Assembly: GCA_965279305.1 (NCBI GenBank)
Contig: OZ257143.1
Location: 90,001-122,000 of the forward strand
DNA length: 32,000 nt
Direction: 5' to 3'
Source: Gammaproteobacteria bacterium
Lineage (GTDB): Bacteria; Pseudomonadota; Gammaproteobacteria; JBIOEC01
The notes beneath the pieces were generated by a model. The model had not been told where the DNA came from and did no database searches. It worked only from the letters and a program-made list of their open reading frames with translations. Positions 404 through 14,810 of the stretch are shown here, in pieces. Each line of letters starts with the position of its first letter. Position 1 is the first letter of the stretch. Position numbers and translations under genes: made by a program.

Positions 404-2176
404 TTAGTATGTCCGTTTTTTCGGTTCAAACGGTTTCATCTTTTCTGGTTTCATATTCACTTCACGATATACAATCGTTCCATCCGATAAAAATACCGTG
501 TGCTTTAACCAATGTTCATCATCTCGTTCAGGGAAATCAAAACGACAATGTGCACCGCGACTTTCTTCACGTGCATCGGCACAAATTGCTGTGGCAATAG
601 CCACTTCCATTAAATTTTCTAATTCTAAGGCTTCAATACGTGCGGTATTAAACACCATGCTTTTATCGCCTAATACGGCGTGATGTAAACGTTCACGTAA
701 GGCTTCTAATTTTTTAACACCCGCTTCCATTACATCGGCGGTACGGAATACACCAAAATCGTTTTGCATAACGGTTTGCATTTCTTCACGAAGCTTATTA
801 ACATTTTCGCCTTTCTCTGCCCCTTTTCCATTAGACTCCCAACGATTTAAACGTTGTTCAATTTTTTCTAAACTTTTTTGATCAGGTTCATGGAAGTGAA
901 TATCGTCTTTACGTAAACGTTCACTTAAATGCAATCCGGCTGCACGCCCGAATACCACTAAATCTAATAATGAATTTCCACCTAAACGATTAGAACCGTG
1001 TACTGATACACACGCACATTCTCCCACTGCATATAATCCTTCTACTACTTTATCTTTTCCTTTTTTATCCACAGTGATCACTTGTCCGTGAACATTAGTA
1101 GGCACACCACCCATCATATAATGGCAAGTAGGCACCACAGGAATAGGATCTTTAATGGGATCCACATGCGCAAATGTCATCGCTAATTCACGAATACCGG
1201 GTAAACGTTCTTTAATTAACGCTTCACCTAAATGATCAAGTTTTAATAAAACGTGATCCCCTTTAGGACCACACCCACGACCTTCACGAATTTCAATCGC
1301 CATTGAACGTGCGACCACATCGCGTGAGGCTAAATCTTTTGCATTCGGCGCGTAACGCTCCATAAAGCGTTCACCATTTTTATTAATTAAATATCCACCT
1401 TCGCCACGAACACCTTCGGTTACCAGTACGCCAGCGCCTGCAATACCCGTAGGATGGAATTGCCACATTTCAATATCTTGCACCGGATATCCCGCACGTA
1501 ATGCCATACCCAAACCATCGCCGGTGTTAATTAATGCATTCGTAGTAGAACTAAAAATACGCCCTGCTCCACCTGTTGCTAAAATCACGGCTTTCGCTTG
1601 AAAGAATTCTACATGACCATCTTCAATACATAACACAACTACGCCCGCCACGTTTCCATCTTCTGTGCGCACTAAATCCACCGCAAACCATTCATTAAAA
1701 AAAGTGGTTTTTTCTTTTACGTTTTGTTGATATAAAGTATGTAATAAAGCATGTCCGGTACGATCCGCTACAGCGCAAGTGCGCGCCGCTTGCTCGCCAC
1801 CAAAGTTTTTAGATTGTCCGCCAAATCGGCGTTGATAAATTTTTCCGTTATCCATACGAGAAAACGGCATTCCCATATGTTCCAATTCGTAAACGGCTTG
1901 AGGTGCTTCTTTGCACATATATTCGATGGCATTCTGATCACCTAAATAATCAGAGCCTTTAATGGTATCAAACATATGCCACTGCCACTGATCTTCATCT
2001 GCATTACCTAAAGCAGCATTAATACCACCTTGTGCAGATACAGTGTGAGAGCGAGTAGGAAATACTTTTGAAACCACAGCAATATGAGTGCCTTGCTCCA
2101 TTGCCATTTGATAAGCCGCACGTAAACCTGCTCCGCCGCCGCCCACTACTACTACATCAAAAGATCGAGTTAACAT
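404..2176 (-). CDS. sdhA: succinate dehydrogenase flavoprotein subunit
   Basis: 590-aa ORF with the FAD-binding [10 protein letters not shown] near the N-terminus. It also has [13 protein letters not shown] (covalent FAD His region) and [17 protein letters not shown], all typical SdhA/FrdA signatures. Confidence 0.97.
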
Positions 2177-2198
2177 AATATTTTTTCTCTTCGTTGTT

Positions 2199-2549
2199 CT
2201 AACCGAATAATAAATAAATGCCCCACAGTAAATACACTGCGAGAGATAAAATAACCGCTACTTCTACACTGGCTCTGGCCCACACCGGTTTTACATAATC
2301 GGTGATAATGGTCCACATACCAATCCATGCATGAATTAATAAACAAATTAAAACCAATAATGTGTAAATACGAACACTTAAGCTAGAAAATAATTCAAAC
2401 CAATCCACGAAAGTGACAGGGGAATTGAGAGCAAAAAAACCAATAAGAAAAAAAACATAAGAAGCCACTACGATAGAAGTGACTCGTTGAACAAACCAAT
2501 CAGAAAGTCCTGAACGTCCGAATGCAGTAATATTTTTTACCATAACCAC
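2199..2549 (-). CDS. sdhD: succinate dehydrogenase hydrophobic membrane anchor subunit
   Basis: 116-aa, three-TM hydrophobic ORF between sdhC and sdhA. Its N-terminus ([18 protein letters not shown]) resembles E. coli SdhD. It overlaps the sdhC end by 13 nt. Confidence 0.85.
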
Positions 2550-2911
2550 ACTCCTACTAACGCAATCAATATAAAGGAAATAACCATCACGGCTTGCGCC
2601 CCTAAGCGCCCGCCTTGTTTACTATCTCCAATATGCACGTCCATAAAAAGATGGCGCACACCGGCTACCAAGTGATAGATAAGACTGCCCAGTAATCCAA
2701 AAACGACTAGCTTAACAAAAGGGCTAGATAAGATATCGGTCAGCTTAATATAGGTCCAGGGGCTAGCAAGAGACATCTGTAGCATCCACAGCATGAGAGG
2801 GATTAATAAGAATAAAACAACCCCTGACAGGCGGTGTAGGATAGAAGTGATAGCCGTAATAGGAAAGCGAATGGTGAACAAGTTTAAGTTCACAGGTCGT
2901 TTCTGTTTCAC
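2537..2911 (-). CDS. sdhC: succinate dehydrogenase cytochrome b556 subunit (GTG start)
   Basis: 124-aa ORF. RPVNLNLFTIRFPITAITSILHRLSGV closely matches the conserved SdhC N-terminus. It is the first gene of the sdhCDAB order. Confidence 0.87.
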   Translation of the reverse strand: MKQKRPVNLNLFTIRFPITAITSILHRLSGVVLFLLIPLMLWMLQMSLASPWTYIKLTDILSSPFVKLVVFGLLGSLIYHLVAGVRHLFMDVHIGDSKQGGRLGAQAVMVISFILIALVGVWLW

Positions 2912-2950
2912 TATATAGTCCTTATGAATTTAGTGGAGTATTCGACCAAT

Positions 2951-2979
2951 ATTATAAGGCAGTTCGCCCTCTGGCACAA
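2951..2979 (-). promoter_or_regulatory. candidate sigma70 promoter of sdhCDAB
   Basis: The minus strand reads TTGTGC (2979-2974), 17 nt, TATAAT (2956-2951), about 40 nt upstream of the sdhC GTG. This rests on sequence pattern only. Confidence 0.4.
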
Positions 2980-3028
2980 TTGGGATCTGCGCCTAATACC
3001 AAAATCGAGCAATAAACCCACTAAAGTC

Positions 3029-3871
3029 TTAGCTGGGGGTAGAACCTGGTTTTTCGCAAGGTAATGCCGCCAGCGCATTTTTTGCTGTCGTTATATCTAC
3101 TTCAGATTGGCTTGAAAACCCGTCTGCTACCCATCCACGATAAGGTTCATAAGCTAAAAGAGGGAGTGCAACCAAAGCCGCCCCTAAACGGATTACCGCT
3201 TTCCCTCCCAAAGCAGGCGCATTTCTGGCAGGCATGGCCTCTTTTGCACGATCCCCTTCCAATACAGATCTCAAGGAGTCTTTAATAGCTTTTTTTAACT
3301 GTTCTAATAGTTCTATAAATGGACCCGCTCGATTTACTTGGAAATCATTTATGGTCTTTTTTAGAGTCAGTTGTAACCCCGTATTTAATCCAATAAGATT
3401 CCCCGCTTTCAGATCTGCATCTCTATCTTGGGGGTCTTTTTTTACAAGCACTTCTAATCTAATTTTAGAATCAATAATGGGAGCCACAACCTCATCCAGT
3501 AAGCCTTGCATAAATCCATCGGTATACAATTGTCCTATCAACCTGTATTTATCATCATTCCCTTTGTGATCACGCGCTATAGTCTGTAAGACCATTTTCC
3601 ACTGCTCCCATGCCTCAACACCTTTTTTCCAACTATCCCCTTCCCACTTCATATAACTGGGGGTAGTCAATGAAAGCACCAGCAATTTAGCCCTATCGTA
3701 ATTAAGTTCGATCGCATCTACTATACCAATTGAATCTGCCTCTGCTGGATTACCAACCACGTCATTAATCTCTTTGAAACACTCCGCCGCTCCATCAACA
3801 GACTGTGCCACTTTTGAAGGGAAATACTTAGGGTCAAAAGGCGCTGGGGCTGTGGTTGCTGCTGCTTTCAT
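3029..3871 (-). CDS. hypothetical protein, 280 aa (orphan)
   Basis: Long ATG-initiated ORF with no recognisable catalytic motif. It is mostly helical-looking, with one hydrophobic stretch near the C-terminus (AVIRLGAALVALPLLAY). The antisense ORFs in the track (3064-3285, 3234-3569) look spurious. Confidence 0.6.
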   Translation of the reverse strand: MKAAATTAPAPFDPKYFPSKVAQSVDGAAECFKEINDVVGNPAEADSIGIVDAIELNYDRAKLLVLSLTTPSYMKWEGDSWKKGVEAWEQWKMVLQTIARDHKGNDDKYRLIGQLYTDGFMQGLLDEVVAPIIDSKIRLEVLVKKDPQDRDADLKAGNLIGLNTGLQLTLKKTINDFQVNRAGPFIELLEQLKKAIKDSLRSVLEGDRAKEAMPARNAPALGGKAVIRLGAALVALPLLAYEPYRGWVADGFSSQSEVDITTAKNALAALPCEKPGSTPS

Positions 3872-3959: not shown

Positions 3960-4289
3960 TTAGGCGGCTTGAGTTACTTGGATATTGAGATGTAAACCTA
4001 GACGCTCTACTTCTTCTTGAATGGTAAGTCTTACAAATTGCACAGGAGACTCGCCCAGTTTCTTGGCAAATTGAGCAGCCATTTTTACACTGAGGGTTCT
4101 ACGACCGTGCTCAAGATCACAAAGGTACTGGCGCGAGACACCCAATTTCTTTGAAAACGCTGCTAGAGACACTTCTTCAGATTCACGAATTGCCCATAAT
4201 AAATTTCCAATGGTCAGCTTCTTTTTACTAATACCTTCTAAAGCAGCTAACGTTTTTTCCGTCATGCTCTTTGATTTTTTAGTACTCAT
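3960..4289 (-). CDS. XRE-family helix-turn-helix antitoxin (HigA-like)
   Basis: SLAAFSKKLGVSRQYLCDLEHGRRTLSVKMAAQFAKKLG is a classic XRE/Cro HTH. I prefer ATG 4289 (GAGG 9 nt upstream) over the TTG at 4304 used by the ORF track. It overlaps the upstream toxin stop by 11 nt. Confidence 0.75.
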   Translation of the reverse strand: MSTKKSKSMTEKTLAALEGISKKKLTIGNLLWAIRESEEVSLAAFSKKLGVSRQYLCDLEHGRRTLSVKMAAQFAKKLGESPVQFVRLTIQEEVERLGLHLNIQVTQAA

Positions 4290-4569
4290 GTTTATTAACC
4301 TCAATTATTTCAACAAAATGAACTCGACCCGATATATCAATCTTATAAAATGCTCGCCATGCCTTACTTAAGCGAATCGAATGCTGTCCTCTTCGTTTTT
4401 TTCCTTTTACAGGCTCATCATGATAACCAGGGATTTTTCGCGTTTGATAAAGACCATCAACCCCAACGCTTTCTACCCATTTTTGAAGCTTAACGACAAT
4501 CTGCTTAGGCACATTACGTTTCAATGAATCTAAAACTTTATTTGAAATCGTTACCTGGAAAATATCCAC
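4279..4569 (-). CDS. RelE/ParE-superfamily type II toxin (toxin-first, HigB-like arrangement; GTG start)
   Basis: 96 aa, basic. The C-terminal pattern HSIRLSKAWRAFYKIDISGRVHFVEIIEVNKHEY matches the RelE/ParE (R-x-R-x-x-x-x-R-x-x-Y ... V-x-x-H) signature. It is translationally coupled to the HTH gene. Confidence 0.7.
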   Translation of the reverse strand: MDIFQVTISNKVLDSLKRNVPKQIVVKLQKWVESVGVDGLYQTRKIPGYHDEPVKGKKRRGQHSIRLSKAWRAFYKIDISGRVHFVEIIEVNKHEY

Positions 4570-4741: not shown

Positions 4742-5680
4742 TTATGAGGGGCGTGAAGTACTTTGTATAGAAGGGGCTATTGGAGTATTGGCTCTTATTT
4801 GACGATCGAGGGTTTCTACCGCCTCAGCAGAGCGAGTCAGCATTTCTGAAAAACTACTCGTGGTAAAAGCACCACCCAATAAACCTTCTTTTTGGTGAAG
4901 CTCATCACTTTCCTTAATCAATTCTCTCGTTTTTCTAATATAGTCTTGTGTGCTTTTATCATTACCGGCTACAAATGGTCGTAATGCCTCTTTAACGTAC
5001 CTAGCCACTAAATCATTTCTTTCTGCTGATGGTTGAAACAAACGATTCTCTTGTGCTCGTTTATATTCCTCATAAAAATCGATAGCGATTTTTTTCAGAT
5101 TTTCCACCTTAACAGCATTTATAACAATCGTTGCAACTACCGCATCTGCACCTTTTTTATCTAATCGATCAAAATCAAAAAATAAAATATGGTTTTTTTC
5201 TGCAAATGATTTAGCATCATTAACAACAGAAATATCTTTAGTAACAACACCCAAAGCTATATCTCCCTGCTCTTCAGCAGGTAGATCAGAAACAGGTGCG
5301 TGAGAAACGGCAACTAAAGCAATAGCTATTAAACTATTGTTATTATTGGCTTCTCTTTTTTCTTTGAATGACAATATACCGTTTATATATTGTTTTACAG
5401 TTTCTGCTGAATTAAGATCTTTGGGATTAAAACAAACCACATAACCCAGAATATCGGGCTCATACTGATCAATTTCTTTTGGCACACGATTAAAAACTTC
5501 TACCTTATCTGTTTCACGCAATCTCAGATTAGCAGCAACATTCTCATTACCACCAGCTAAAGTGTTAAGAAATAAATCGGTGCCGTCTCCCATAAATGAG
5601 ACAGGAATTTTATATTCAGTATTTTCACTTAAGGCATTGCCATATATGATATTTACAAACGTTAATCCACTACTAGGCAT
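4742..5680 (-). CDS. hypothetical protein, 312 aa (orphan)
   Basis: ATG-initiated ORF with an alternating beta/alpha-looking N-terminal half and a helical, charged C-terminal half. No Walker A or other catalytic motif was found. Confidence 0.6.
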   Translation of the reverse strand: MPSSGLTFVNIIYGNALSENTEYKIPVSFMGDGTDLFLNTLAGGNENVAANLRLRETDKVEVFNRVPKEIDQYEPDILGYVVCFNPKDLNSAETVKQYINGILSFKEKREANNNNSLIAIALVAVSHAPVSDLPAEEQGDIALGVVTKDISVVNDAKSFAEKNHILFFDFDRLDKKGADAVVATIVINAVKVENLKKIAIDFYEEYKRAQENRLFQPSAERNDLVARYVKEALRPFVAGNDKSTQDYIRKTRELIKESDELHQKEGLLGGAFTTSSFSEMLTRSAEAVETLDRQIRANTPIAPSIQSTSRPS

Positions 5681-5845
5681 AAGTTACTTTCCATTAATTA
5701 TCTATTATTAAGTCTAATTGATTGTTAGCTCAAAGAAAGTAATTTAGCTTATTAATCAGATAATTGGCCACATTTGACCTAATAGCAAAAACCAGGAGAT
5801 AGGGCTTTAGGAGCAGTTTTGGGGATAATTTGGTATAATAATGGC

Positions 5846-6619
5846 ATGACTATTCATATTAATACCCCTGAAGACATCGAGAAAATGCGTATTGCAGGCC
5901 GTTTAGCCGCTGACGTACTCGATATGATTACCCCTCATGTAAAGGCCGGGGTGACCACTGACGCCCTAGATAAGCTATGCCATGACTATATAGTGAACGT
6001 TCAGGATGCTATTCCGGCCTGTTTAGGCTATAGAGGCTATACCAAAACCATCTGTACCTCGGTTAATCACCAGGTTTGCCATGGGATCCCTAGCGATAAA
6101 AAGCTCAAAACCGGCGATATTATCAATATCGACGTGACCGTTAAAAAAGACGGTTATCACGGCGATACCAGTAAAATGTTTATTGTAGGCAAAGGCAGTA
6201 TATTGGCCGAACGCCTAGTCCGTGTCACCCAAGAATGTATGTATTTAGGCATTCAAGCCGTAAAACCTGGGGCCCATTTTGGGGATATTGGGGCGGTTAT
6301 TCAAGAACATGCCCATAAAAACCATTTTTCAGTAGTACGCGACTTTTGCGGCCATGGCATTAACACAGTTTTCCATGCCGAGCCTCAAGTGCTGCACTTT
6401 GGCGTAAAAGGCACAGGCGCCATGATGAAACCCGGCATGATTTTTACGATTGAACCCATGATTAATGCCGGCAAATCCGGCGTTAAAGTATTAGCCGATG
6501 GCTGGACAGCTGTGACTCGCGACCACAGTTTATCGGCACAATGGGAACACACTATTCTTGTCACTGAAACGGGCTACGAAGTACTTACGCTTCGCTCTGA
6601 AGAAAAAGGGCAAATATAA
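5846..6619 (+). CDS. map: type I methionine aminopeptidase
   Basis: MTIHINTPEDIEKMRIAGRLAA aligns residue for residue with the E. coli Map N-terminus. Metal-ligand contexts are present (DIINIDVTV..DGYHGDTS, FCGHGI, FTIEPM, SAQWEHT). The ORF track starts at TTG 5819, which has an AGGAG 5 nt upstream, so a 9-aa longer form is possible. Confidence 0.95.
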   Translation: MTIHINTPEDIEKMRIAGRLAADVLDMITPHVKAGVTTDALDKLCHDYIVNVQDAIPACLGYRGYTKTICTSVNHQVCHGIPSDKKLKTGDIINIDVTVKKDGYHGDTSKMFIVGKGSILAERLVRVTQECMYLGIQAVKPGAHFGDIGAVIQEHAHKNHFSVVRDFCGHGINTVFHAEPQVLHFGVKGTGAMMKPGMIFTIEPMINAGKSGVKVLADGWTAVTRDHSLSAQWEHTILVTETGYEVLTLRSEEKGQI

Positions 6620-6636
6620 AATATTTGCCCTTTTTG
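6608..6636. terminator. bidirectional rho-independent terminator shared by map and the ankyrin-protein gene
   Basis: The sequence is AAAAA-GGGCAAATAT-aaa-ATATTTGCCC-TTTTT, a 10-bp perfect stem with T-tracts on both strands. It lies between the convergent stops at 6619 and 6638. Confidence 0.65.
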
Positions 6637-6637
6637 G

Positions 6638-9600
6638 TTAGTTAGCCGCTGGCCCTGCAGATCCTGCGGCGGGAGCCGGAGGCGTTGATGATGGTGAGGA
6701 ACCTGATGAAGCTAAACTGCTTCCAGAATTAGAAGCGAGACTGCCACTTCCTTTTTTCGGATATTTCTTTTCCAACACATCAAAAGGTTTAGCTTCTCTA
6801 CTTACCAACACATTCTTGTAGTCTTGAATGAAACTATCTTCTCGAACATAACCGTGTTCATTTACAAAATGATCTCTTTCATCTGCTGTGACTACTCTAG
6901 GCTCGCCATATTTATTATAAATTAAATCACTATCATTTAATGGTTCACCACCCACTGAAAGTTTCTTCAAATCTTTTAATTTTCTGTCGGGAGCAACATA
7001 TACGATACCCTCACAAACAATAGGACTACGGAATAAAACACCCAATACAGTCCAATGATCTCCGTCTTCAACACCTACCCCCATCATGGCGTGTATCACA
7101 GGACTACTCGCTGCCTTGGTTTTATCCGTACTCGTTTCTAATATTTTGTTAGGTTCTTTACGTATTATTCCACGAGTAAGGTGTTTAGGTTTGCGTAATG
7201 CTGCCACCATAGCATTTTGCACACCCTCACTTTCTAATACGGCAGGGGTTTTAAGCTTATCAAAAATCACTTCAGCAAAATAAACAGCTAATTGTCTCGC
7301 TCCTTTCCCAGATAGTTCCAAAATTTGAGGAGAAAAATCTTCGGCAACTCTTTCTGCAGCCGCTACGCAAATTAATTTAAAGTCACGCTCCCTTTCAGGC
7401 TCTGACAAAACCTGCGAGATTCTATCGTATTGTCTCTCGGCTTGAACCCGCATATAACGTTTATACACTTCATTAGCCATGGTCACCAATATTTGAGCAA
7501 CAAATGATCCTGCTGCAGAAGCACCTGTTACATCCGTCATTCCACTCGCCGCCGCACTGACAGCGCCACTAGCCACTTTACCTATCAATTGCACCAAGGT
7601 TTCATCAAGAACTAAGTCTTTTAAATCAGATAATTTTTTAACTAAATCTCCAGATAAAGCAGCAACAAACTCGCTTTTAACATCCGTGCCCCATTTTTTA
7701 CTCGTATCAAAATAGTCGAATATTCTTTTAATACCATCCAGCTGCTCTTTAAGATCAGCCATATCTTTTTCTGTTCTCTCTGCTGACGCAGCTACTTTTG
7801 CATCTAACCTTGCAACCATGTCTTTCAAATCGGTTAAATGATGCTCAGCCATAGCAAACATAATTTGAAATTTTTGAGCCTCTACGGCGACTACTTCTGC
7901 AGATTTTGCTCCTCCTGATCTTAAGGTGGAAATTTTGTGCGCGCAATCAAAAATGGCTTGCTCTTGAACCTGAGAAGTAGCAGAGGCATTATCTGCTATA
8001 GAAGCCAGCTCATCTTTTTCTCCCTTACTAAAATCTTCAGACTCTAGAAAATAATCCATGCCTCTCAAACTTTTTACCATTTTTTCTACGATATCTTTAT
8101 CGGCTATCCATTCTTTTAAGAAAAATAACACTTTTAAAAAAGCATTCTCAGAAGCAAGGCTAAGCACATGATCACCCCGACGATTACGAAGAGTTAAAGT
8201 AGCTCCTTCTCGCGCAAGTAAAGATAATGCATCCACCGGATTTTCTAATTTAACCGCTGCCTTATGTATCGCGGTATTGCCATGAGAATCACGAGTATCA
8301 ATATTAAAACCCAATTCATATAAAACTTTTAATGCAGTTTGATTAGCATCTCTAGCTGCTTGGAAATAAGCATCTACAATCCACTCATTGGATGGAGGGT
8401 TATTATAAATATAATCCCATGTTGCATCTGCATTGCCTGCCGATACCATTTTATATAATACATTCTCTTCATCGACTGAAACCACTGTTCCAATTCTTAC
8501 TACAATGGTAGAAGGTGCTACCGGTCTAGGTACAATTTCAGGTTCAACAGGAAGCACAAAGCCGGTAGAAGGTATAACGTATGGTGTAACTTCAGGTTCG
8601 ATATCCGCAGGTTCTGGAACGTTTGAAGGACTCGCAGGTACTACAATATTTTCTGAATCAGGAGCTGCCGTATCTGTAACAACGGGGGCTTCTCCTATTT
8701 CCGCCAACATGTTAGCCAACGCATCATCCACGCTTCTTGCTTCTGATTTTATTGCTACATGCTCCAACTGTGCTGCTTTATACTCGGCTTGTAAAGCTGC
8801 CACACCTTCCACTCCAGCGGCAGGATCCACAACAATAGTAGGCGTAACAAAAGTTTCATCAACTGCCGCTGCTTCTGCGCTTACCACGTTGCTTGTTTCT
8901 GCAGCATTCGCAGCGGCTACAGAAGTGTCAATAATGAGAGGAACAGGAGCCGCTATGGTTTCGGCATTTGCCGCAGACTCGGAAGTAGCAACCACCACCG
9001 GAATAATACCAGGCGCATCACTAAACTCTTTAATTTTTCTACGTAATCTCAACAATTTAGCATGATTCTTTTTCGCTTTATCACTGGTTTTTTGAAGGCG
9101 CTGCTCTAGATCAGTCAACGCAGATAATCGGGCATCATGTTCATTTTGAAGTGATTCTCTTTCTTGTTTTTCAAAAACTAAACGACCCTGGGTAGATTCT
9201 AATCGATCATAAAGTTCTAAAGCTTCCTCATCTAAGGTTTTAACTTCCTTTTTATATTCACCTAGTAATTTTTTATAATTTTCATTTGCTTTCTGCTCTT
9301 GTTCAAGCTTTTTCGAAGTATCAGTCAGAGTAGCTGCTAATTTCAAATTTTCATCTAAAGCGGCGGTGTATTTTTCAACAGCTTCATCCATCTTAGCTTT
9401 TGCTGCTTCGCGTTCTTGATTAGCTTTATCTAATTTTTGTTGAGCCTCATCTCGCTCTTTTTTCAAATCAAATATTTTTACTCGTTGTTCATTAATTTTA
9501 ACGCGTTGATTTCTAATCTCTTGGCGCTGCGCTATAATTTGTTCACCTTGCGCGCTGATAGTCTCCTCATGTGCTTCTAATGTTACTCGCAATTCTGTGG

Positions 9601-10084
9601 CTTCTTTAGCGGTTTCAACCGTAAAATTATTTAACATATCTGACAATTTTTTTAAAGCATTCAAAAAATCGACTAACATTTTGTCGTCATAGGTTCCCTC
9701 CGGCAATAAGGGTTTGAAAAAACCGACCTGACCTCTACTAGATCCCACATGCGTGAGCATTTTGTCAATAATACTTTTCCAAAGATTAACGAACTCTAAA
9801 AAACTTAATGCATTTTCAGCCGGTTTATACCCTTCCGTTAGAAAAGGCTGCGCATCTGCTAAAAATATTCTCACAGGCACAGCAAAACCGTGCATATGTC
9901 CTATGTGTTTAAGAGTCGTTAGCTCACCACTCAACCGACTTTTTTGAGAAACCTCTTGTGCATCCGAACCTTTACGACTTGTAGGAATTTTGTATACTCC
10001 AATAGTCAGGTTTTCTAAATGATCGTCTGTAGCCAGTTTTACTAAACTACTTAATTCTTTTATCAACACTTTTTCGTTTGGCAT
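6638..10084 (-). CDS. giant coiled-coil / ankyrin-repeat protein, 1148 aa (eukaryote-like, candidate effector)
   Basis: Residues ~155-350 (nt ~9035-9622) are heptad-like and charged (KINEQRVKIFDLKKERDEAQQKLDKANQEREAAKAKMDEAVEKY...). Residues ~355-530 form an A/V/T/S/P/E-rich low-complexity linker. Ankyrin repeats lie at aa ~540-655 (nt ~8120-8467), e.g. GFNIDTRDSHGNTAIHKAAVKLENPVDALSLLAREGATLTLRNRRGDHVLSLA. The C-terminal tail is S/G/P/A-rich. The start has GGGAG 10 nt upstream. Confidence 0.85.
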   Translation of the reverse strand: MPNEKVLIKELSSLVKLATDDHLENLTIGVYKIPTSRKGSDAQEVSQKSRLSGELTTLKHIGHMHGFAVPVRIFLADAQPFLTEGYKPAENALSFLEFVNLWKSIIDKMLTHVGSSRGQVGFFKPLLPEGTYDDKMLVDFLNALKKLSDMLNNFTVETAKEATELRVTLEAHEETISAQGEQIIAQRQEIRNQRVKINEQRVKIFDLKKERDEAQQKLDKANQEREAAKAKMDEAVEKYTAALDENLKLAATLTDTSKKLEQEQKANENYKKLLGEYKKEVKTLDEEALELYDRLESTQGRLVFEKQERESLQNEHDARLSALTDLEQRLQKTSDKAKKNHAKLLRLRRKIKEFSDAPGIIPVVVATSESAANAETIAAPVPLIIDTSVAAANAAETSNVVSAEAAAVDETFVTPTIVVDPAAGVEGVAALQAEYKAAQLEHVAIKSEARSVDDALANMLAEIGEAPVVTDTAAPDSENIVVPASPSNVPEPADIEPEVTPYVIPSTGFVLPVEPEIVPRPVAPSTIVVRIGTVVSVDEENVLYKMVSAGNADATWDYIYNNPPSNEWIVDAYFQAARDANQTALKVLYELGFNIDTRDSHGNTAIHKAAVKLENPVDALSLLAREGATLTLRNRRGDHVLSLASENAFLKVLFFLKEWIADKDIVEKMVKSLRGMDYFLESEDFSKGEKDELASIADNASATSQVQEQAIFDCAHKISTLRSGGAKSAEVVAVEAQKFQIMFAMAEHHLTDLKDMVARLDAKVAASAERTEKDMADLKEQLDGIKRIFDYFDTSKKWGTDVKSEFVAALSGDLVKKLSDLKDLVLDETLVQLIGKVASGAVSAAASGMTDVTGASAAGSFVAQILVTMANEVYKRYMRVQAERQYDRISQVLSEPERERDFKLICVAAAERVAEDFSPQILELSGKGARQLAVYFAEVIFDKLKTPAVLESEGVQNAMVAALRKPKHLTRGIIRKEPNKILETSTDKTKAASSPVIHAMMGVGVEDGDHWTVLGVLFRSPIVCEGIVYVAPDRKLKDLKKLSVGGEPLNDSDLIYNKYGEPRVVTADERDHFVNEHGYVREDSFIQDYKNVLVSREAKPFDVLEKKYPKKGSGSLASNSGSSLASSGSSPSSTPPAPAAGSAGPAAN

Positions 10085-10107: not shown

Positions 10108-11060
10108 ATAGTCTTCCATTAATATTAAGCATTAAAAGCCGGATAATAAGCCTGTTTTTGAGGCGGTGTTGCTTTTCTCACTTGTGCAGATAGCTCCATC
10201 ATATCAACCAAAGGTACAGGAACCGCTGTTTTAGCGAGTTCCTCTTGCGCTTTAGTCGATGTCCAACGATCAGCTGCTGTCCTTTTGCAAGAATGCTCTA
10301 TTAGCATTCGCATGATCAATGGCGTATCTAATGGAAGGTTACGCATTAATTCAGCGGCTTCAGGTCTTTCCTGATCACGACGTTTATCTAGTATTTGAAA
10401 AAAGTTTACACTAGAAGGATAAACGGGTTTTTGGGTGGCTAACGCTACGATGACTAATCCAAAACTATACATATCAGAACGCTTAGTCAAAGCCTCACCT
10501 CTACAAGCTTCAGGTGAAGCATAAGCAACAGTACCTCGGATCCAATCACTTTGAGAACCAGCACCATTTTGTGAGGCAGCAGTAAAGATCGTATTTCCTA
10601 TATCTTTTGTTAACGCTAACCCAAAATCGGCCACCTTCAAATGCAAATCCTGTCCCAATAAGAAATTCTCGGGTTTCACATCGCAGTGAACCATACCCTG
10701 TGGAATCCCAGCAATAACCAAGGTGTGTAGAACAACTATGGCTCCCACTATTTCCCTTGCAAATTGTAAACGCACAGACCAGGGAAGTGGCTGCGCTTGG
10801 TTATACAGAACATCTGCCAAAGAGCCCCATGCTAATTCAAACACCAAAGAAATAACAGCTTGCTCACGAACCTCATCAGAAAAATATCCATAAAATCCAA
10901 TAACACTAGGTGATTTCACCATTCTCAGAGCTGCTATCTCTTGTAATGTCATGGCTTCACCCGCATCGTTCAACAACGGTATTTGTTTAAGCGCAACAGT
11001 TCCACCCGCTTTTCTTGAAACAGCATATACCTTACCAAAACCGCCTTTTCCTAGCATTCT
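10108..11060. repeat. dispersed repeat copy 1: 3' ~0.95 kb of paralogue A (kinase domain plus 17 nt past the stop)
   Basis: Near-identical to 13870-14810. In the first ~340 nt compared by eye I count about 11 mismatches. There is one 12-nt indel next to the catalytic loop. Confidence 0.9.
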
Positions 11061-13685
11061 GCCTTCCGTCAATGCTAACGTGTATTGGGCTTCCGCTTGT
11101 GTTTTTGTTAATTGGCGAGGTTCTTCTTCATTGCTGGCTCTTAACGCGTCTAATTTTACTTTTAACGCATCAGAACTACGTCTTTGTTCAGCCGACAATT
11201 TAGGAAATTGGGTTGGTAAACGCGTTTGATCTAACCAATAACGAGCCATGATGTAATTGCCATCAGCAAAATTACTTTCAAGCAAAGCTACCTGGGCATT
11301 AATATCGCCCGCTTGCGCATCTATTACTTGGAAATAATTTCTCAAGAATAAATCTGAACGGTTAACATACGCAAGATAGTCTTTCTCAAACCGAGTGGCT
11401 AGCTCAGTAAAAGTAGTTTCAAAGCGCACTAGTTTAATAATTCTTAGCACTAAACTAGTTACGGCTTGCTTAGCAGCCAGCCACTCTTGCTCCGCTTTCA
11501 CTTTTGCTTTCAAACCGATCACACCAGGTGTGGTGCCTACTGCAGGAGTGCCATTTATCGCAAGATGGTCCACACGAATGGTATACTCATTACTGGTTTT
11601 CTCTGTGTTCAATCTAGCGCGTAGAGTATTTCTGCGATCTTCCTCTAATCCACCTTGATTATCAATTTCCCTATTTCTTTCGTTGATATCACTTACTAAA
11701 GCATCAATCTCTACCTGCTTTGCATCACGCCGTGTTATAAGAGCTGCTCTTCTGTCCACATAACCTTGTATAATTGCAAGACTCGCTGGCAGATGTCTTG
11801 TTTCAACCAAAATATCTACAGAAGCTTTCGTGGCATGATAAGGGTTATATTTTAAATTAACATTTAATGAGCCATTATTACCACCTGCATCAGTCCATGT
11901 ACTTCCAGCACTGGTGATATCCGTAAACTCTCCATGCTCACCTTTTTTCTCGACTACCTGGCCATCAACCCGAAGACGATATTTATCTATTAGCCCTGAA
12001 TAAGTGAAGGGTTGATTAAAGCTTATGCTCAAAGTCATCCACCACCACCACCTTAATGTATATTCCCAATTCTTCGGCTCTGCTTTCGCATAAGGGGGTT
12101 GATCCGCAGCGGGAACAGAGTCATCTCCTTTTAATACTTGAATTTTCGCATCAAACTGGCTAAGCCCCCATTGTTCTTCCCCTATCTCAGTATACAAAGG
12201 AGTTCTATATACAATCGGATTAGCCTGTGCATCAACTGGGAACCGTCCCTCTAGCTTTACTTTTTCTATTTCCGCGGCCTTAAGTGCAGTTTTTTTACTC
12301 TCACGCTGTATCTTAAGCTCATCTGTTGGATCGGCCACCGTATCTACTCCATCTAACTCACGATCTATACGTTGATTATCCTTAACTAACCTATCTATTT
12401 CTCCGAGTAAACGAGTAATCGCTGGTGTGTGCGTAGCATGTGCTTGTGTATGACTTGAAACTTCGCTCATAGTCCCAGCAAGCGCTTGTTCAAGCCTTCT
12501 TCTTGCGGGATCATAGACATTAAAATTAAATTTTTCTTTAGCAACAACAGTAGTATTCAATGCCAAGCGTTGTGTTACTTCTGTTCTTAATACAGTTTGA
12601 TCCGCGTCTGTATTCATTAAAAAAATATTATCCATATTGGCGATCATCGCTGTCAAAACGTCTTTAGCAGCATTGCATCTATTAATATCATTCATTAATT
12701 CATTTAGTTCCCCTTCAACTTGGTGTTCAACTGCAGTTGCACCAGGGTTAACCACTGCATTTACAACTCTATAAAACCCTCTTCTTGCATCCAACACAAG
12801 ACCCTCAGCCATACTTTGATTTATTTTTCTCGCTAGAGATTTGATCGTGTCTTCAAAAAACTCTATGTGCCCTTCAATTTGTGTTTTTATATCATCTTTA
12901 ACAAGGTCGCGATCATCTATCCTTGTAAATACCCACAATAGAGGGAGCTCCTGAGGTTTTCTCAACAATTGGGTTAGTAATTCCAATAACCCTTGAAAAT
13001 TTCCGTTTCTATCCAAATTGTTGTAATTAAATACCACTATCACGGCTTTAATGGTTTTAGCATTATGAACCGCAATTTCAGTTGTGATGGAGGCACAGGC
13101 TCGTTCTTCAATCTCTCGGTTATCATTAAGTCCTGGTGTATCACAATACTTAATCGTGGTTCCATAAACCGAAGGATATTGTGTTTGAGCAGCGATCCGA
13201 TGGCCAATAACAGCAGCCTGATCATTAGGTGTTGCTAAATTTAGAACAGCACGCCCGCCAACTCTTGCTTGCCTCAAAGCATTGCCAACCATTGCATTAA
13301 CAAACGTACTTTTTCCTGAACCAATCAATCCAACCACAATAGCAACATCCTCATCTTTTACGTCTTCTACTTTATGAACGCCTACCGCTAACAATTCATG
13401 CAATCGAGTTAAATCAAAACCTCCTGTAATAGGAGTCACTGCAGCTGCTCGCGCAGGTGCCTGTTGCGCTGCTGCGGCAGCAGCTGCTTGTCGCGGTGCT
13501 TGTTGCGCTGCAGCAGCAGCTTGTCGCGGTGCTTGTTGCGCTGCCGCTACAGCAGCTGCTTGTCGCGGTGCAGGGGCTGCTTGCTGAGCCGAATGAGCTG
13601 CTTGTGGAGCTGCGCTCGCTTGAGCTGCGGCTTGTTGCGCGGCGGGAGCTTGTTGTTGTGCGGAACCTGCTGTTGGTTGAACCAT
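10125..13685 (-). CDS. GTPase / coiled-coil / Ser-Thr kinase fusion protein, paralogue A (~1186 aa)
   Basis: The N-terminus is Q/A-rich. P-loop GLIGSGKST is at 13305-13331, followed by DTPGLND and a G4-like LLWVFTRIDD. A central Trp-rich module (RWWWWMTLSISFNQPFTYSGLIDKYR) begins at nt ~12068. The kinase spans ~10260-11060 with GKGGFGKV, VALK, HCDVKPEN (HCD at 10680-10688), DFG, ASPE and SDMYSFG. I prefer ATG 13685 (AAGGAA upstream, homologous to the paralogue B start) over the track's 13715. Confidence 0.85.
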   Translation of the reverse strand: MVQPTAGSAQQQAPAAQQAAAQASAAPQAAHSAQQAAPAPRQAAAVAAAQQAPRQAAAAAQQAPRQAAAAAAAQQAPARAAAVTPITGGFDLTRLHELLAVGVHKVEDVKDEDVAIVVGLIGSGKSTFVNAMVGNALRQARVGGRAVLNLATPNDQAAVIGHRIAAQTQYPSVYGTTIKYCDTPGLNDNREIEERACASITTEIAVHNAKTIKAVIVVFNYNNLDRNGNFQGLLELLTQLLRKPQELPLLWVFTRIDDRDLVKDDIKTQIEGHIEFFEDTIKSLARKINQSMAEGLVLDARRGFYRVVNAVVNPGATAVEHQVEGELNELMNDINRCNAAKDVLTAMIANMDNIFLMNTDADQTVLRTEVTQRLALNTTVVAKEKFNFNVYDPARRRLEQALAGTMSEVSSHTQAHATHTPAITRLLGEIDRLVKDNQRIDRELDGVDTVADPTDELKIQRESKKTALKAAEIEKVKLEGRFPVDAQANPIVYRTPLYTEIGEEQWGLSQFDAKIQVLKGDDSVPAADQPPYAKAEPKNWEYTLRWWWWMTLSISFNQPFTYSGLIDKYRLRVDGQVVEKKGEHGEFTDITSAGSTWTDAGGNNGSLNVNLKYNPYHATKASVDILVETRHLPASLAIIQGYVDRRAALITRRDAKQVEIDALVSDINERNREIDNQGGLEEDRRNTLRARLNTEKTSNEYTIRVDHLAINGTPAVGTTPGVIGLKAKVKAEQEWLAAKQAVTSLVLRIIKLVRFETTFTELATRFEKDYLAYVNRSDLFLRNYFQVIDAQAGDINAQVALLESNFADGNYIMARYWLDQTRLPTQFPKLSAEQRRSSDALKVKLDALRASNEEEPRQLTKTQAEAQYTLALTEGRMLGKGGFGKVYAVSRKAGGTVALKQIPLLNDAGEAMTLQEIAALRMVKSPSVIGFYGYFSDEVREQAVISLVFELAWGSLADVLYNQAQPLPWSVRLQFAREIVGAIVVLHTLVIAGIPQGMVHCDVKPENFLLGQDLHLKVADFGLALTKDIGNTIFTAASQNGAGSQSDWIRGTVAYASPEACRGEALTKRSDMYSFGLVIVALATQKPVYPSSVNFFQILDKRRDQERPEAAELMRNLPLDTPLIMRMLIEHSCKRTAADRWTSTKAQEELAKTAVPVPLVDMMELSAQVRKATPPQKQAYYPAFNA
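13336..13448. repeat. short near-identical patch (113 nt) shared by the 5' regions of paralogues A and B, copy in A
   Basis: Five mismatches by eye against 17110-17222. It encodes ITGGFDLTRLHELLAVGVHKVEDVKDEDV, immediately before the P-loop. Confidence 0.85.
13441..13683. repeat. GC-rich imperfect tandem repeat encoding the Q/A-rich N-terminus of paralogue A
   Basis: The core unit gcttgtcgcggtgc... recurs at 13486, 13519 and 13558 (periods 33 and 39 nt). On the minus strand it encodes AAQQAPRQAAAA(A) repeats. Paralogue B has a shorter related tract (~17205-17335) and C has none. Confidence 0.8.
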
Positions 13686-13843
13686 GATATTATTCCTTGT
13701 ATTATTCTCAAACATGAAATACTAAAAAGAAATCGGAGACGAAAATATTACAACATCCTATCAGAAGGTAATGTCATTAGTAGATAGCTTATAACTGAAT
13801 TAGCTACCAGAGATTAGCTTGCATATTTTTGAGCGATTAACCA

Positions 13844-13870
13844 TTAAGAACTCAAAAGCAGATAAAACCA
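13844..13870 (-). pseudogene. stranded relic of an ancestral paralogue 3' end (last 8 codons plus stop)
   Basis: The minus strand reads tggttttatctgcttttgagttcttaa (W F Y L L L S S stop). It matches 22 of 27 nt of the real 3' end of paralogue C, cgtttttatcctgttttgagttcttaa (R R F Y P V L S S stop, 17495-17521). It lies 17-43 nt downstream of the present stop of paralogue B. Confidence 0.55.
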
Positions 13871-14810
13871 TAGTCTTGCATTAATATTAAGCATTAAAAG
13901 CCGGATAATAAGCCTGTTTTTGAGGCGGTGTTGCTTTTCTCACTTGTGCAGATAGCTCCATCATATCAACCAAAGGTACAGGAACCGCTGTTTTAGCGAG
14001 TTCCTCTTGCGCCTTAGTCGATGTCCAACGATCAGCTGCTGTCATTTTGCAAGAATGCTCTATTAGCATTCGCATGATCAATGGCGTATCTAATGGAATA
14101 TTACGCATTAATTCAGCGGCTTCAGGTCTTGTCTGATCACAACGTTTATATAGTATTTGAAAAAAGTTTACACTAGAAGGATAAACGGGTTTTTGGGTGG
14201 CTAACACTAAGATGATTAATCCAAAACTATACATATCAGAACGCTTAGTCAAAGCCTCACCTCTACAAGCTTCAGGGGAAGCATAAGCCGCAGTACCTCG
14301 GATCCAATCACTTTGAGAACCAGCACCGGCTTCTGACCCAGCAGTACGGATCGTATTTCCTATATCTTTTGTTAACGCTAACCCAAAATCGGCCACCTTC
14401 AAATGCAAATCCTGTCCCAATAAGAAATTCTCGGGTTTTAAATCGCAATGAACCATTCCATTTGGAGGGAATGTATGTAAAACAACTAAGGCTCCCACTA
14501 TTTGCCTTGCAAATTGTAAACGCACAGACAAAGGAAGTGGCTGCGCTTGGTTATACAGAACATCTGCCAAAGAGCCCCATGCTAATTCAAACACCAAAGA
14601 AATAACAGCTTGCTCACGAACCTCATCAGAAAAATATCCATAAAATCCAATAACACTAGGTGATTTCACCATTCTCAGAGCTGCTATCTCTTGTAATGTC
14701 ATGGCTTCACCCGCATCGTTCAACAACGGTATTTGCTTAAGCGCAACAGTTCCACCCTCTTTTCTTGAAACAGCATATACCTTACCAAAACCACCCTTTC
14801 CTATCATTCT
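13870..14810. repeat. dispersed repeat copy 2: 3' ~0.94 kb of paralogue B
   Basis: See copy 1. Similarity drops to protein-level only beyond ~14810 / ~11060. Confidence 0.9.

Follow-up and report, generated by a model that had tools for sequence, protein, structure and literature searches.

Gene Organization of the Locus

Three large genes, designated here paralogues A, B and D, lie one after another on the minus strand of the window, by which we mean the whole 32-kb stretch of DNA that was analyzed. The genes, and a repeat array at the start of A, are as follows:

10125-13715, minus strand: paralogue A, longest ORF 1196 aa (ORF list and Pfam)
13887-17345, minus strand: paralogue B, 1152 aa, architecture as in A
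17495-20641, minus strand: paralogue D, an old outgroup copy, 1048 aa if read from a GTG start, 1045 aa if read from the ATG at 20632
13441-13571, minus strand: Ala/Gln-rich tandem repeat at the N-terminus of A, period 33/39 nt (Tandem Repeats Finder, repeat families D3 and D8)

All three are complete ORFs. The true start of A is probably the ATG at 13685, giving a protein of 1186 aa, because this agrees with database protein P0001 (1186 aa, 100% identical to A) and with the start context of B; the start contexts of A and B are alike and of the AAGGA type. The database protein corresponding to D, P0005, is 1045 aa long. A and B share 68.6% protein identity across 1110 aa (BLASTP), while D is about 28-30% identical to either over the N-terminal module and center and about 38-40% over the kinase. 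At the nucleotide level, D is ~50% identical to both A and B, in all segments alike. The Ala/Gln-rich array is shorter in B (17209-17293) and absent from D. The gene at 6638-10084 was considered as a fourth paralogue and rejected, its similarity being at the coiled-coil level only.

Scans for promoters and terminators gave numbers of sites that were not above those of shuffled sequence. Both intergenic spacers (D-to-B and B-to-A) contain a conserved TTAAT-GG-T(T/C)AAT motif. It recalls PmrA boxes, but its spacing departs from their consensus, and we make no claim about it.

Predicted Protein Architecture

The proteins encoded by A, B and D are predicted to consist of a TRAFAC-type GTPase module, an orphan middle of ~600 aa and a TKL-like kinase. 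In A, the Pfam match to MMR_HSR1 covers aa 126-260, that to Pkinase aa 884-1157. The kinase match is strong in all three (PF00069, 120-132 bits against a cut-off of 31.7), the translations carry the motifs GKGGFGKV, VALK, HCD(V/L)KPEN, DFG and SPE, and the best relatives in the PDB are FERONIA, RIPK1/3/4 and IRAK4 (E ~1e-20). By these signatures, the C-terminal domain is a predicted eukaryote-type protein kinase with its catalytic motifs intact.

The GTPase match is closer to its threshold (PF01926, 25-32 bits against 21.9), and G1, the invariant Thr and DxxG are conserved in 13 family members. A structural model of the G domain (pLDDT 83) shows apparent fold similarity to FeoB, Toc34, GIMAP1 and Era, with Toc34 and GIMAP1 among the best matches at a TM score of at most 0.49. 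An AlphaFold model of the whole non-kinase region, built from three sequences, was poor (pLDDT 55), and its matches were kept only as indicating a generic GTPase. The G4 motif reads TRID in A, TKIE in B and SKIY in D, which leaves the specificity for guanine in doubt. Several established families were considered for the module and rejected. Profiles for Roc, Ras and COR matched none of the three proteins, and the best 50 fold matches contained no Roc structure, contrary to membership of ROCO/LRRK. Dynamin_N scored 16-19 bits against a cut-off of 27 and matched the P-loop only, and the fold matches to dynamin, Vps1 and IniA had TM scores of 0.1-0.25, both of which speak against the dynamin superfamily. 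The AIG1/GIMAP/Toc34 GTPases also fell short (AIG1, 23.6-23.9 bits against a cut-off of 27).

As regards translocation by a Dot/Icm (type IVB) system, no secretion genes were found within the 32-kb window. The eukaryote-type kinase, an ankyrin neighbor and the U-box, OTU and PARP fusions of related proteins (see below) give A, B and D an effector-like appearance, and from this domain content it is plausible that they form an effector family under host pressure.

Near-Identical Segments of Paralogues A and B

Paralogues A and B are mosaics, in which two segments of near-identity bound a divergent center and the larger segment is itself interrupted by two short islands:

10108-11060, minus strand: putatively converted 3′ tract, A copy; kinase domain, C-terminal tail, stop codon and 17 nt of 3′ flank
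13870-14810, minus strand: putatively converted 3′ tract, B copy; counterpart of A 10108-11060
13336-13448, minus strand: putatively converted 5′ patch, A copy; encodes the N-terminal helix directly before the P-loop
17110-17222, minus strand: putatively converted 5′ patch, B copy; counterpart of A 13336-13448
11043-13335 (B: 14793-17109), minus strand: center, probably unconverted or anciently diverged; G domain, helical hairpin, beta-rich domain and helical bundle
10677-10730 (B: 14439-14480), minus strand: island 1; holds a 12-nt indel, 71% identity, dS 1.6
10566-10586 (B: 14328-14348), minus strand: island 2; activation loop, FTAASQN in A and RTAGSEA in B

The two copies of the 3′ tract differ by 44 substitutions, 11 of them within the first ~340 nt, and by one 12-nt indel (A 10704-10715, missing in B), giving 95.4% identity. 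The 5′ patch has five mismatches in 113 nt (95.6% identity; dS 0.15), with high identity continuing beyond it to ~13474 and the HMM segment reaching 13583 in A coordinates. An earlier sequence-only reading of this DNA had given the same coordinates for both segments, and its counts proved exact when repeated. It had also proposed a sliding-window comparison of A and B as a check, and identity is indeed not uniform along the genes: in sliding-window and HMM profiles it changes in sharp steps between ~97% and ~62%.

The boundaries of the tract are well defined. Similarity sets in abruptly 17 nt 3′ of both stop codons, where 16 of 17 nt are identical, and at the other end the tract begins ~20 nt or less from the first kinase codon (aa 884, nt 11066). 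The longest run of identity between A and B is 203 nt, whereas permuting the mismatch positions gave a mean of 28 and a maximum of 61 (n = 10,000), an outcome that was unchanged with third codon positions alone. The silent sites of the tract are homogenized: four-fold degenerate sites differ at 5 of 136 positions (3.7%) in the tract against 68 of 174 (39%) in the center (Fisher p = 7e-15), and among codons for the same amino acid synonymous differences amount to 3.6% and 28%, respectively. The dS of the tract is 0.07 overall and 0.03 without the islands, compared to 0.73 in the center. No RNA family or long opposite-strand ORF able to constrain the DNA of the tract was found. Base composition is even, with a GC3 of 0.30-0.31 across all A/B segments, like that of neighboring genes, and GC-biased conversion was rejected.

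The residual mismatches of the tract are clustered, with nine adjacent pairs where 2.0 were expected, a number that none of 5,000 permutations attained. Island 1 corresponds to the loop that separates helix E from the HCD catalytic loop; this stretch reads LHTLVIAGIPQGMVHCD in A and LHTFPPNGMVHCD in B, and island 2 has eight mismatches in 21 nt (permutation P = 6e-4). The clustering, together with the dS of 1.6 in island 1, is what unconverted remnants would look like.

The Divergent Center

Over the center, A and B are 69.9% identical in nucleotide and 58.9% in protein sequence, with dS 0.73, dN 0.31 and an omega of 0.42. The sequence-only reading had described this part as recognizable only at the protein level, but it can be aligned as DNA; the two peptides it quoted were located at aa 555 of A and aa 510 of B. 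It had also offered diversifying selection on the center. Pairwise dN/dS is 0.3-0.7 throughout, and although some central windows come near 1, none clearly exceeds it, so this suggestion is not borne out.

Three stretches of the center are better conserved than the rest (13217-12925, 12710-12486 and 11559-11269; 225-293 nt each, 80-87% identity). Their synonymous differences are fewer (24.5% against 33.9%, p = 0.04) under a segmentation made on amino-acid divergence only, which is non-circular. They may hint at older conversion tracts, a reading that we do not assert.

The Duplication Unit

Two further features lie between B and A:

13844-13869, minus strand: relic of the last eight codons and stop of D, adjoining the 17 nt that follow the B stop codon; left boundary of the unit duplicated in B and A
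13686-13843, minus strand: B-to-A spacer, homologous to the D-to-B spacer at 17346-17494; a non-coding yardstick for the age of the duplication

The relic is identical to the end of D (17495-17520) at 22 of 26 nt. Relic and spacer together agree with their counterparts at 118 of 175 positions (67%), where shuffled sequence gives 47% (sd 3.5), and repeat family D10 has 71% identity. The first ~100 nt of coding sequence are 61% identical between A and B. Since the relic of D stands directly beyond the 17 nt past the stop codon, those 17 nt are the right-hand edge of the original duplicated unit. The sequence-only reading had counted them with the near-identical ends; they are not in themselves a mark of conversion. 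The non-coding spacer was duplicated along with the gene and has diverged as much as the center, which indicates that the duplication is old and that the ends were homogenized later.

Origin of the Mosaic

The sequence-only reading had left two options, recent gene conversion of the ends or a faster center under diversifying selection. The four-fold sites and the dS values (0.03 against 0.73) favor the former and count against the latter. We consider it very probable that A and B are old tandem duplicates in which two segments were later overwritten by interlocus gene conversion.

In such a history, the unit duplicated in tandem would have comprised the final ~26 nt of D, the spacer, the gene and the 17 nt that follow its stop codon, and the unconstrained sequence of the two copies would then have drifted apart by ~30%. 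Much later, non-reciprocal homologous recombination would have replaced one copy's sequence by that of the other in two segments, presumably through RecA-dependent repair templated by the neighboring paralogue or by a misaligned sister chromosome. The first segment would comprise the whole kinase domain and C-terminal tail up to the edge of homology (~0.95 kb, dS ~0.03), and the second would be a separate and somewhat older patch before the P-loop (~0.11-0.25 kb, dS ~0.15). Conversion would have been patchy, with the two short islands in kinase surface loops retaining the old divergence, spared either by mismatch repair of the heteroduplex or by selection against converted variants; judged from two sequences, patchy repair and selection could equally account for them. 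The outcome would be two proteins that are nearly alike in the kinase and C-terminus and unlike in the GTPase and middle modules. The sequence itself shows the mosaic, the homogenized silent sites, the edges of the duplicated unit and the patchiness; the recombination pathway, the direction of transfer and any selective value are what we infer in this account. At sites that differ between A and B, agreement with D is found five times for each of them. The tract extends to ~9 nt from the end of homology, which would be awkward for a two-ended repair model. No fourth close paralogue that might have served as an outside donor is on record in the protein databases searched.

An improbable alternative is that A and B are recent duplicates and that the center of one was replaced by a divergent allele, coming from another strain by homologous recombination, for which the conserved ends served as arms, or from a third paralogue located elsewhere or since lost. 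Near-identical ends around a divergent core are the pattern expected of homology arms, but such a replacement predicts near-identity outside the arms as well, where spacer and relic are only 67% and the first ~100 coding nt only 61% identical. The two ends also differ in age (dS 0.15 and 0.03), and neither a further close paralogue nor a foreign relative appeared among 5.8 billion clusters and 1.84 billion representatives; genome and metagenome scans were likewise without a donor.

We give still less credence to an assembly artefact, in which strain variants or repeats would have been collapsed or joined into chimeras. A pair of direct 0.95-kb repeats with 95% identity, 3.76 kb apart, is a known hazard, but 44 sites and a 12-nt indel separate the copies, these differences keep the reading frame and introduce no stop codons, no perfect repeat is longer than 203 nt, both genes are intact with distinct flanks, the relic junction makes evolutionary sense, and the source contig on record is 1.87 Mb long.

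A history without recombination, with stronger purifying selection on the kinase or a center evolving faster under relaxed or diversifying selection, is the least credible: the kinase is the best conserved part in the long term (40% aa identity to D, against 28-30% for the center) and dN/dS nears 1 in some central windows, but selection on protein leaves synonymous differences in place (here 3.7% against 39% at four-fold sites), the identity also extends into non-coding sequence, at 16 of the 17 nt that follow the stop codon, a central dN/dS of 0.42 overall is not positive selection, no RNA family or opposite-strand feature was found to constrain the DNA, and the dN of the kinase tract relative to D (0.64) equals that of the better-conserved central segments, so that constraint over the long term cannot account for how A and B differ.

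Divergence at silent sites and in co-duplicated non-coding sequence thus decides between conversion and selection without outgroup genomes, and trees or dN/dS calculated from the whole genes of A and B would come out wrong. The 0.95-kb direct repeats are also a real substrate for deletion or amplification of the 3.76-kb unit.

Comparison with Known Systems

The tufA/tufB genes and the rrn operons are bacterial examples of interlocus gene conversion and concerted evolution. As in these, A and B would represent partial, non-reciprocal homogenization of two paralogues of the same genome, with near-identity that includes silent sites and older divergence at its bounds. Unlike tufA/tufB and rrn, the homogenized part here is one domain-sized segment and a small 5′ patch, and the genes are lineage-specific and effector-like, not housekeeping. 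Gene conversion between bacterial paralogues has been reviewed (Santoyo & Romero 2005, as cited in PMC4209131) and interlocus conversion has been surveyed across prokaryotes (PMC6053082). The mechanism is already known; the gene family is new and previously undescribed. Within converted GOT1 paralogues of a copepod, a eukaryotic case, divergent islands persist (PMC3728101), much as short islands of old divergence would have survived in the tract of A and B at 10677-10730 and 10566-10586.

Tandem expansions of eukaryote-like effectors are found in amoeba-associated bacteria as the F-box, BTB and RING families of the Parachlamydiaceae, for which birth-and-death evolution with purifying selection was favored over concerted evolution (PMC4209131). 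The likeness to A, B and D is that large proteins with domains of eukaryotic type form lineage-specific tandem arrays in a bacterium that apparently lives in association with a host; the phylum is a different one, as are the domains, and at the present locus there is a clear conversion tract.

In Neisseria pilE/pilS, Borrelia vlsE and Anaplasma msp2, silent, promoterless donor cassettes diversify an expressed surface protein. These systems resemble A and B in that segments are transferred non-reciprocally among related sequences of one locus or genome, but A and B are complete genes, each with a start context of its own, and the effect is homogenization, not diversification. Cassette-based antigenic variation was rejected, since all three ORFs are complete and the start contexts of A and B, both of the AAGGA type, resemble each other.

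The LRRK kinases are assigned to the TKL group, and it is to TKL-group kinases (RIPK, IRAK and plant receptor kinases) that the kinase of A, B and D is closest. Eukaryotic and bacterial ROCO/LRRK proteins resemble A, B and D in joining a G domain at the N-terminus to a eukaryote-type kinase at the C-terminus of one polypeptide, as do the Rac1-like GTPase-ankyrin-kinase proteins of Ca. Centrionella, a Legionellales symbiont, which are encoded by neighboring paralogues with shuffled domains (bioRxiv 10.64898/2026.04.11.717937). In contrast to both, the G domain of A, B and D is not Ras-, Roc- or Rho-like but matches MMR_HSR1, with a predicted fold nearest to FeoB, Toc34 and GIMAP, and a COR domain, LRRs and ankyrin repeats are absent, the ~600-aa orphan middle standing in their place.

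Relatives of the GTPase Module

The combination of GTPase module and kinase was found nowhere else among 1.84 billion representative proteins. A word-indexed protein search with A returned the window's own proteins and generic kinases only, genome and metagenome scans with an alignment of the non-kinase part returned no orthologues, and A/B/D genes occurred at no locus of 80 related genomes carrying sdhA. The N-terminal module by itself has 555 relatives at E ≤ 1e-10 (profile search), all from metagenomes or uncultured genomes; relatives of the module carry U-box, RING, OTU, PARP or ankyrin domains. Naming the GTPase family through cluster look-ups was abandoned, as the records were metagenomic and either nameless or given automatic misnomers such as 'EcfA2'.

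Incidental to the conversion, and biologically the more interesting point, is this undescribed architecture, in which an uncultured, deep-branching bacterium resembling Legionellales joins a TKL-like kinase to a predicted TRAFAC GTPase module, with the module recurring in hundreds of uncharacterized bacterial proteins joined to ubiquitin-system or other eukaryote-directed domains. Should the proteins turn out to be secreted as effectors, the family would represent a new, modular type of effector scaffold. A tentative extension, to which we attach rather low confidence, is that the N-terminal ~650 aa of all three proteins represent a 'GTPase scaffold' family that is widespread in bacteria, has no name and takes interchangeable eukaryote-directed C-termini. 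The choices of C-terminus would then be U-box or RING ligases, OTU, PARP and ankyrin domains, with the TKL-like kinase used only here, and the locus would encode a bacterial counterpart, arrived at by convergence, of LRRK/ROCO and similar GTPase-regulated kinases. Conversion matched precisely to a domain would keep one kinase 'warhead' and secretion tail common to A and B, while the GTPase and targeting modules and two regulatory loops of the kinase stay different.

Gene content and layout of the locus

The window derives from a gammaproteobacterial chromosome, and its contig is recorded at 1.87 Mb. Among its genes are sdhCDA, map and ychJ, those for an rhtB-like exporter, nhaA, an RND efflux pair, dapD and an M20 peptidase, along with a rhodanese, a GNAT acetyltransferase, pyrF and a tRNA-Arg. 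The interval between map and ychJ holds four very large genes, all on the minus strand, of which A, B and D are paralogues and the fourth is unrelated to them:

6638-10084, minus strand: large gene downstream of A, 1148 aa; coiled coil and ankyrin repeats
10125-13715 (likely start 13685), minus strand: A; 1186-aa database protein from 13685
13887-17345, minus strand: B, 1152 aa
17495-20641, minus strand: D, 1048 aa

The longest ORF of A opens at 13715, but the 1186-aa database protein begins at ATG 13685, a start favoured by the AAGGAATAAT-N-ATGGTT context conserved between A and B. The ATG of gene 6638-10084 lies 40 nt past the stop codon of A, and the orphan protein it specifies (long coiled coil, ankyrin repeats, Ser/Pro/Ala-rich C-terminus) may be another effector-like product. 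Between sdhC and map are two orphan ORFs (280 and 312 aa), neither with a Pfam or NCBIfam match, and a gene for an XRE-type HTH protein (3029-3871, 3960-4304 and 4742-5680, minus strand); added to the four large genes, they give the sdh-to-ychJ interval its wealth of lineage-specific genes. D has a higher AT content (GC 31–37%, GC3 0.21–0.26) than A and B (GC ~37–43% outside the Ala-rich N-terminus, GC3 ~0.30), and also than the housekeeping genes nearby.

SdhA reaches at best 72–73% identity across 185,579 species representatives, its nearest matches coming from uncultured Gammaproteobacteria, Ca. Berkiella, and Coxiellaceae and Legionella MAGs. Identities this low, to these taxa, indicate that the organism is a deep-branching, probably Legionellales-like lineage, and the gene content suggests that it is host-associated.

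Stepwise identity between A and B

Similarity between A and B begins abruptly, 17 nt 3' of each stop codon, and the 3' tract that follows (10108-11060 and 13870-14810) is 95.4% identical, with 44 substitutions (11 within the first ~340 nt) and one 12-nt indel. A 5' patch just before the P-loop (13336-13448 and 17110-17222) has 5 mismatches in 113 nt. Every figure given in an earlier, sequence-only reading holds. That reading held the centre of the genes to be recognisable only at protein level, but it can be aligned as DNA, at 69.9% nucleotide and 58.9% amino acid identity, and contains stretches of 225–293 nt at 80–87%. Uniform identity along the genes, which would have spoken against a mosaic, was not seen, as a sliding-window profile and a three-state HMM give steps of ~97%, ~84% and ~62%. 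The longest stretch without a mismatch measures 203 nt; when mismatch positions are permuted (10,000 permutations), its length averages 28 and never exceeds 61, and third codon positions alone likewise show an excess of run length.

It is unlikely that the mosaic is an assembly artefact. Both copies are intact and in frame with 44 differing sites, the longest perfect repeat is only the 203-nt run, and a relic at the junction between the genes makes evolutionary sense.

The duplication unit and its age

This relic (13844-13869) derives from the 3' end of D (8 codons plus the stop), and matches 17495-17520 at 22 of 26 nt. Downstream of B, the order is stop codon, 17 shared nt, D-tail relic, and then a spacer homologous to that between D and B, so the duplication that gave rise to B and A copied a unit of D tail, spacer, gene and 17 nt. 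The relic fixes both edges of this unit, and similarity ends exactly 17 nt past the stops because an edge lies there. The co-duplicated relic and spacer are 67% identical (47%, sd 3.5, for shuffled sequence), a divergence like that of the gene centre, and it follows that the centre dates the duplication and that the ends are younger.

A TTAAT-GG-T(T/C)AAT direct repeat (13846-13858 and 17497-17509) overlaps the stop of D and that of its relic after B. Both spacers have kept it at their start, together with a few further blocks, e.g., GCTATCTACTA; these may be regulatory sites, although a match to a known regulatory box was not established.

Gene conversion as the probable source of the mosaic

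A and B differ at 5 of 136 four-fold degenerate positions in the 3' tract (3.7%) and at 68 of 174 in the centre (39%; Fisher p = 7e-15), and Nei-Gojobori dS is 0.07 (0.03 without two divergent islands) and 0.73, respectively. Where the amino acid is identical, the codons differ in 3.6% of cases in the tract, against 28% for the centre. Since silent sites are homogenised too, protein-level selection is ruled out as the cause of the tract's identity, and a screen of the tract for Rfam families and long opposite-strand ORFs returned none. Compared with D, dS is saturated throughout, and the dN of the kinase tract (0.64) equals that of the better-conserved central stretches, so the kinase is not exceptionally constrained.

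The sequence-only reading had offered either recent conversion of the ends or diversifying selection on the centre. The first is upheld by three independent lines, namely silent sites, the non-coding yardstick and long-term constraint, and we consider it very likely that gene conversion explains the mosaic: an old tandem duplication would have been followed by recent, domain-sized and patchy conversion. Diversifying selection is not supported, as dN/dS between A and B is 0.42 in the centre and 0.3–0.7 in every segment. The proposal that A and B are recent duplicates whose centre was later exchanged by allelic replacement is contradicted by divergence of the spacer and the N-terminus beyond the putative arms, by the differing ages of the two ends, and by the absence of a donor or further close paralogue from very large protein collections.

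Make-up of the probable conversion tracts

The 3' tract starts no more than ~20 nt from the codon that opens the kinase domain (A aa 884, nt 11066) and runs through the C-terminus to the duplicon edge, and so equals the kinase module plus tail. It extends to within ~9 nt of the end of homology, which is not what a simple two-ended repair model predicts. The 5' patch has a dS of 0.15 and therefore represents a separate, older event. The mismatches of the 3' tract are not evenly spread: 9 pairs are adjacent where 2.0 would be expected (none of 5,000 permutations gave as many), and one 21-nt stretch holds 8 of them (permutation P = 6e-4). Two islands keep an old divergence:

10677-10730, minus strand: island 1; 12-nt indel, dS 1.6, encodes the loop before the HCD catalytic loop
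10566-10586, minus strand: island 2; in the activation loop

They are best read as unconverted remnants, and could reflect patchy heteroduplex repair, several overlapping events, or selection keeping regulatory loops paralogue-specific, all of which fit the data. At sites differing between A and B, D agrees five times each way, favouring neither direction of transfer. When the centre was segmented on amino acid divergence alone, the 80–87% stretches had fewer synonymous differences (24.5% vs 33.9%, p = 0.04, rho 0.49), which weakly suggests that they are still older conversion tracts.

Ala/Gln-rich tandem repeats (13441-13571 in A, 17209-17293 in B; periods 33/39 and 12/21 nt) give A and B a low-complexity N-terminus, of ~90 aa and ~45 aa respectively, that D lacks; these unequal lengths show that the paralogues have come to differ in repeat copy number.

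Encoded proteins and comparison with known systems

A, B and D share an N-terminal P-loop G domain, a helical and beta-rich middle region of ~400 aa, and a C-terminal kinase. The G domain matches Pfam MMR_HSR1 above threshold, and AIG1 and Dynamin_N below it. A model of the first 386 aa, predicted from a 13-sequence alignment (pLDDT 83, pTM 0.73), places long helical hairpins after the G domain. Among solved structures, its fold comes closest to the FeoB G domain, Toc34/33, GIMAP1, Era and IRG proteins, although TM scores are modest throughout. The domain is probably a TRAFAC-type GTPase outside any named family; it does not resemble Ras or Roc. Conserved motifs are G1, the switch-I Thr and DxxG, whereas the G4 of B and of D is degenerate (TRID in A, aa ~262-265; TKIE in B, ~219-222; SKIY in D, ~210-213); judging from these motifs, the three proteins may differ in guanine specificity or nucleotide use. 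The kinase is eukaryote-type and complete (120–132 bits, catalytic motifs intact), and closest to the TKL group, e.g., FERONIA, RIPK1/3/4 and IRAK4.

Interlocus conversion of tandem paralogues is textbook in bacteria (survey in PMC6053082; review cited in PMC4209131), and divergent islands persisting within converted tracts have been described (PMC3728101). The mechanism at A and B is ordinary, and the undescribed gene family around it is the more interesting lead; the practical value of the finding is as a warning for phylogenetic analyses, selection analyses and locus stability. As all three genes are complete, the locus is not of the cassette type of antigenic variation. Like ROCO/LRRK proteins, A, B and D join a G domain to a TKL-like kinase, but they lack Roc and COR domains and are not members. 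The GTPase-kinase order has precedent in Rac1-like GTPase-ankyrin-kinase fusions, also neighbouring paralogues, that a recent preprint reports from another Legionellales symbiont (10.64898/2026.04.11.717937), and the G domains of which are unrelated to those described here.

Relatives of the putative GTPase module

With the non-kinase part as query, an exhaustive profile search covering 1.84 billion representative proteins retrieved 1764 relatives (555 at E<=1e-10), with only B and D matching over the full length. No source looked up gave the family a meaningful name. The relatives have in common the G domain and, judging by the family consensus, the beta-rich region, while kinase motifs are absent from all of the 149 retrieved except D. 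Their C-termini carry a U-box in 16 of 60, and RING, OTU, PARP and ankyrin domains are also present. The N-terminal module belongs to a large, unnamed metagenomic family (retrieved members P0006-P0153), and contigs with readable context are bacterial and gene-dense. One contig (L081) carries two members (5509-7119 and 10927-13014), and on another (L084) a member (1575-3047) adjoins Tn3 transposase and resolvase genes.
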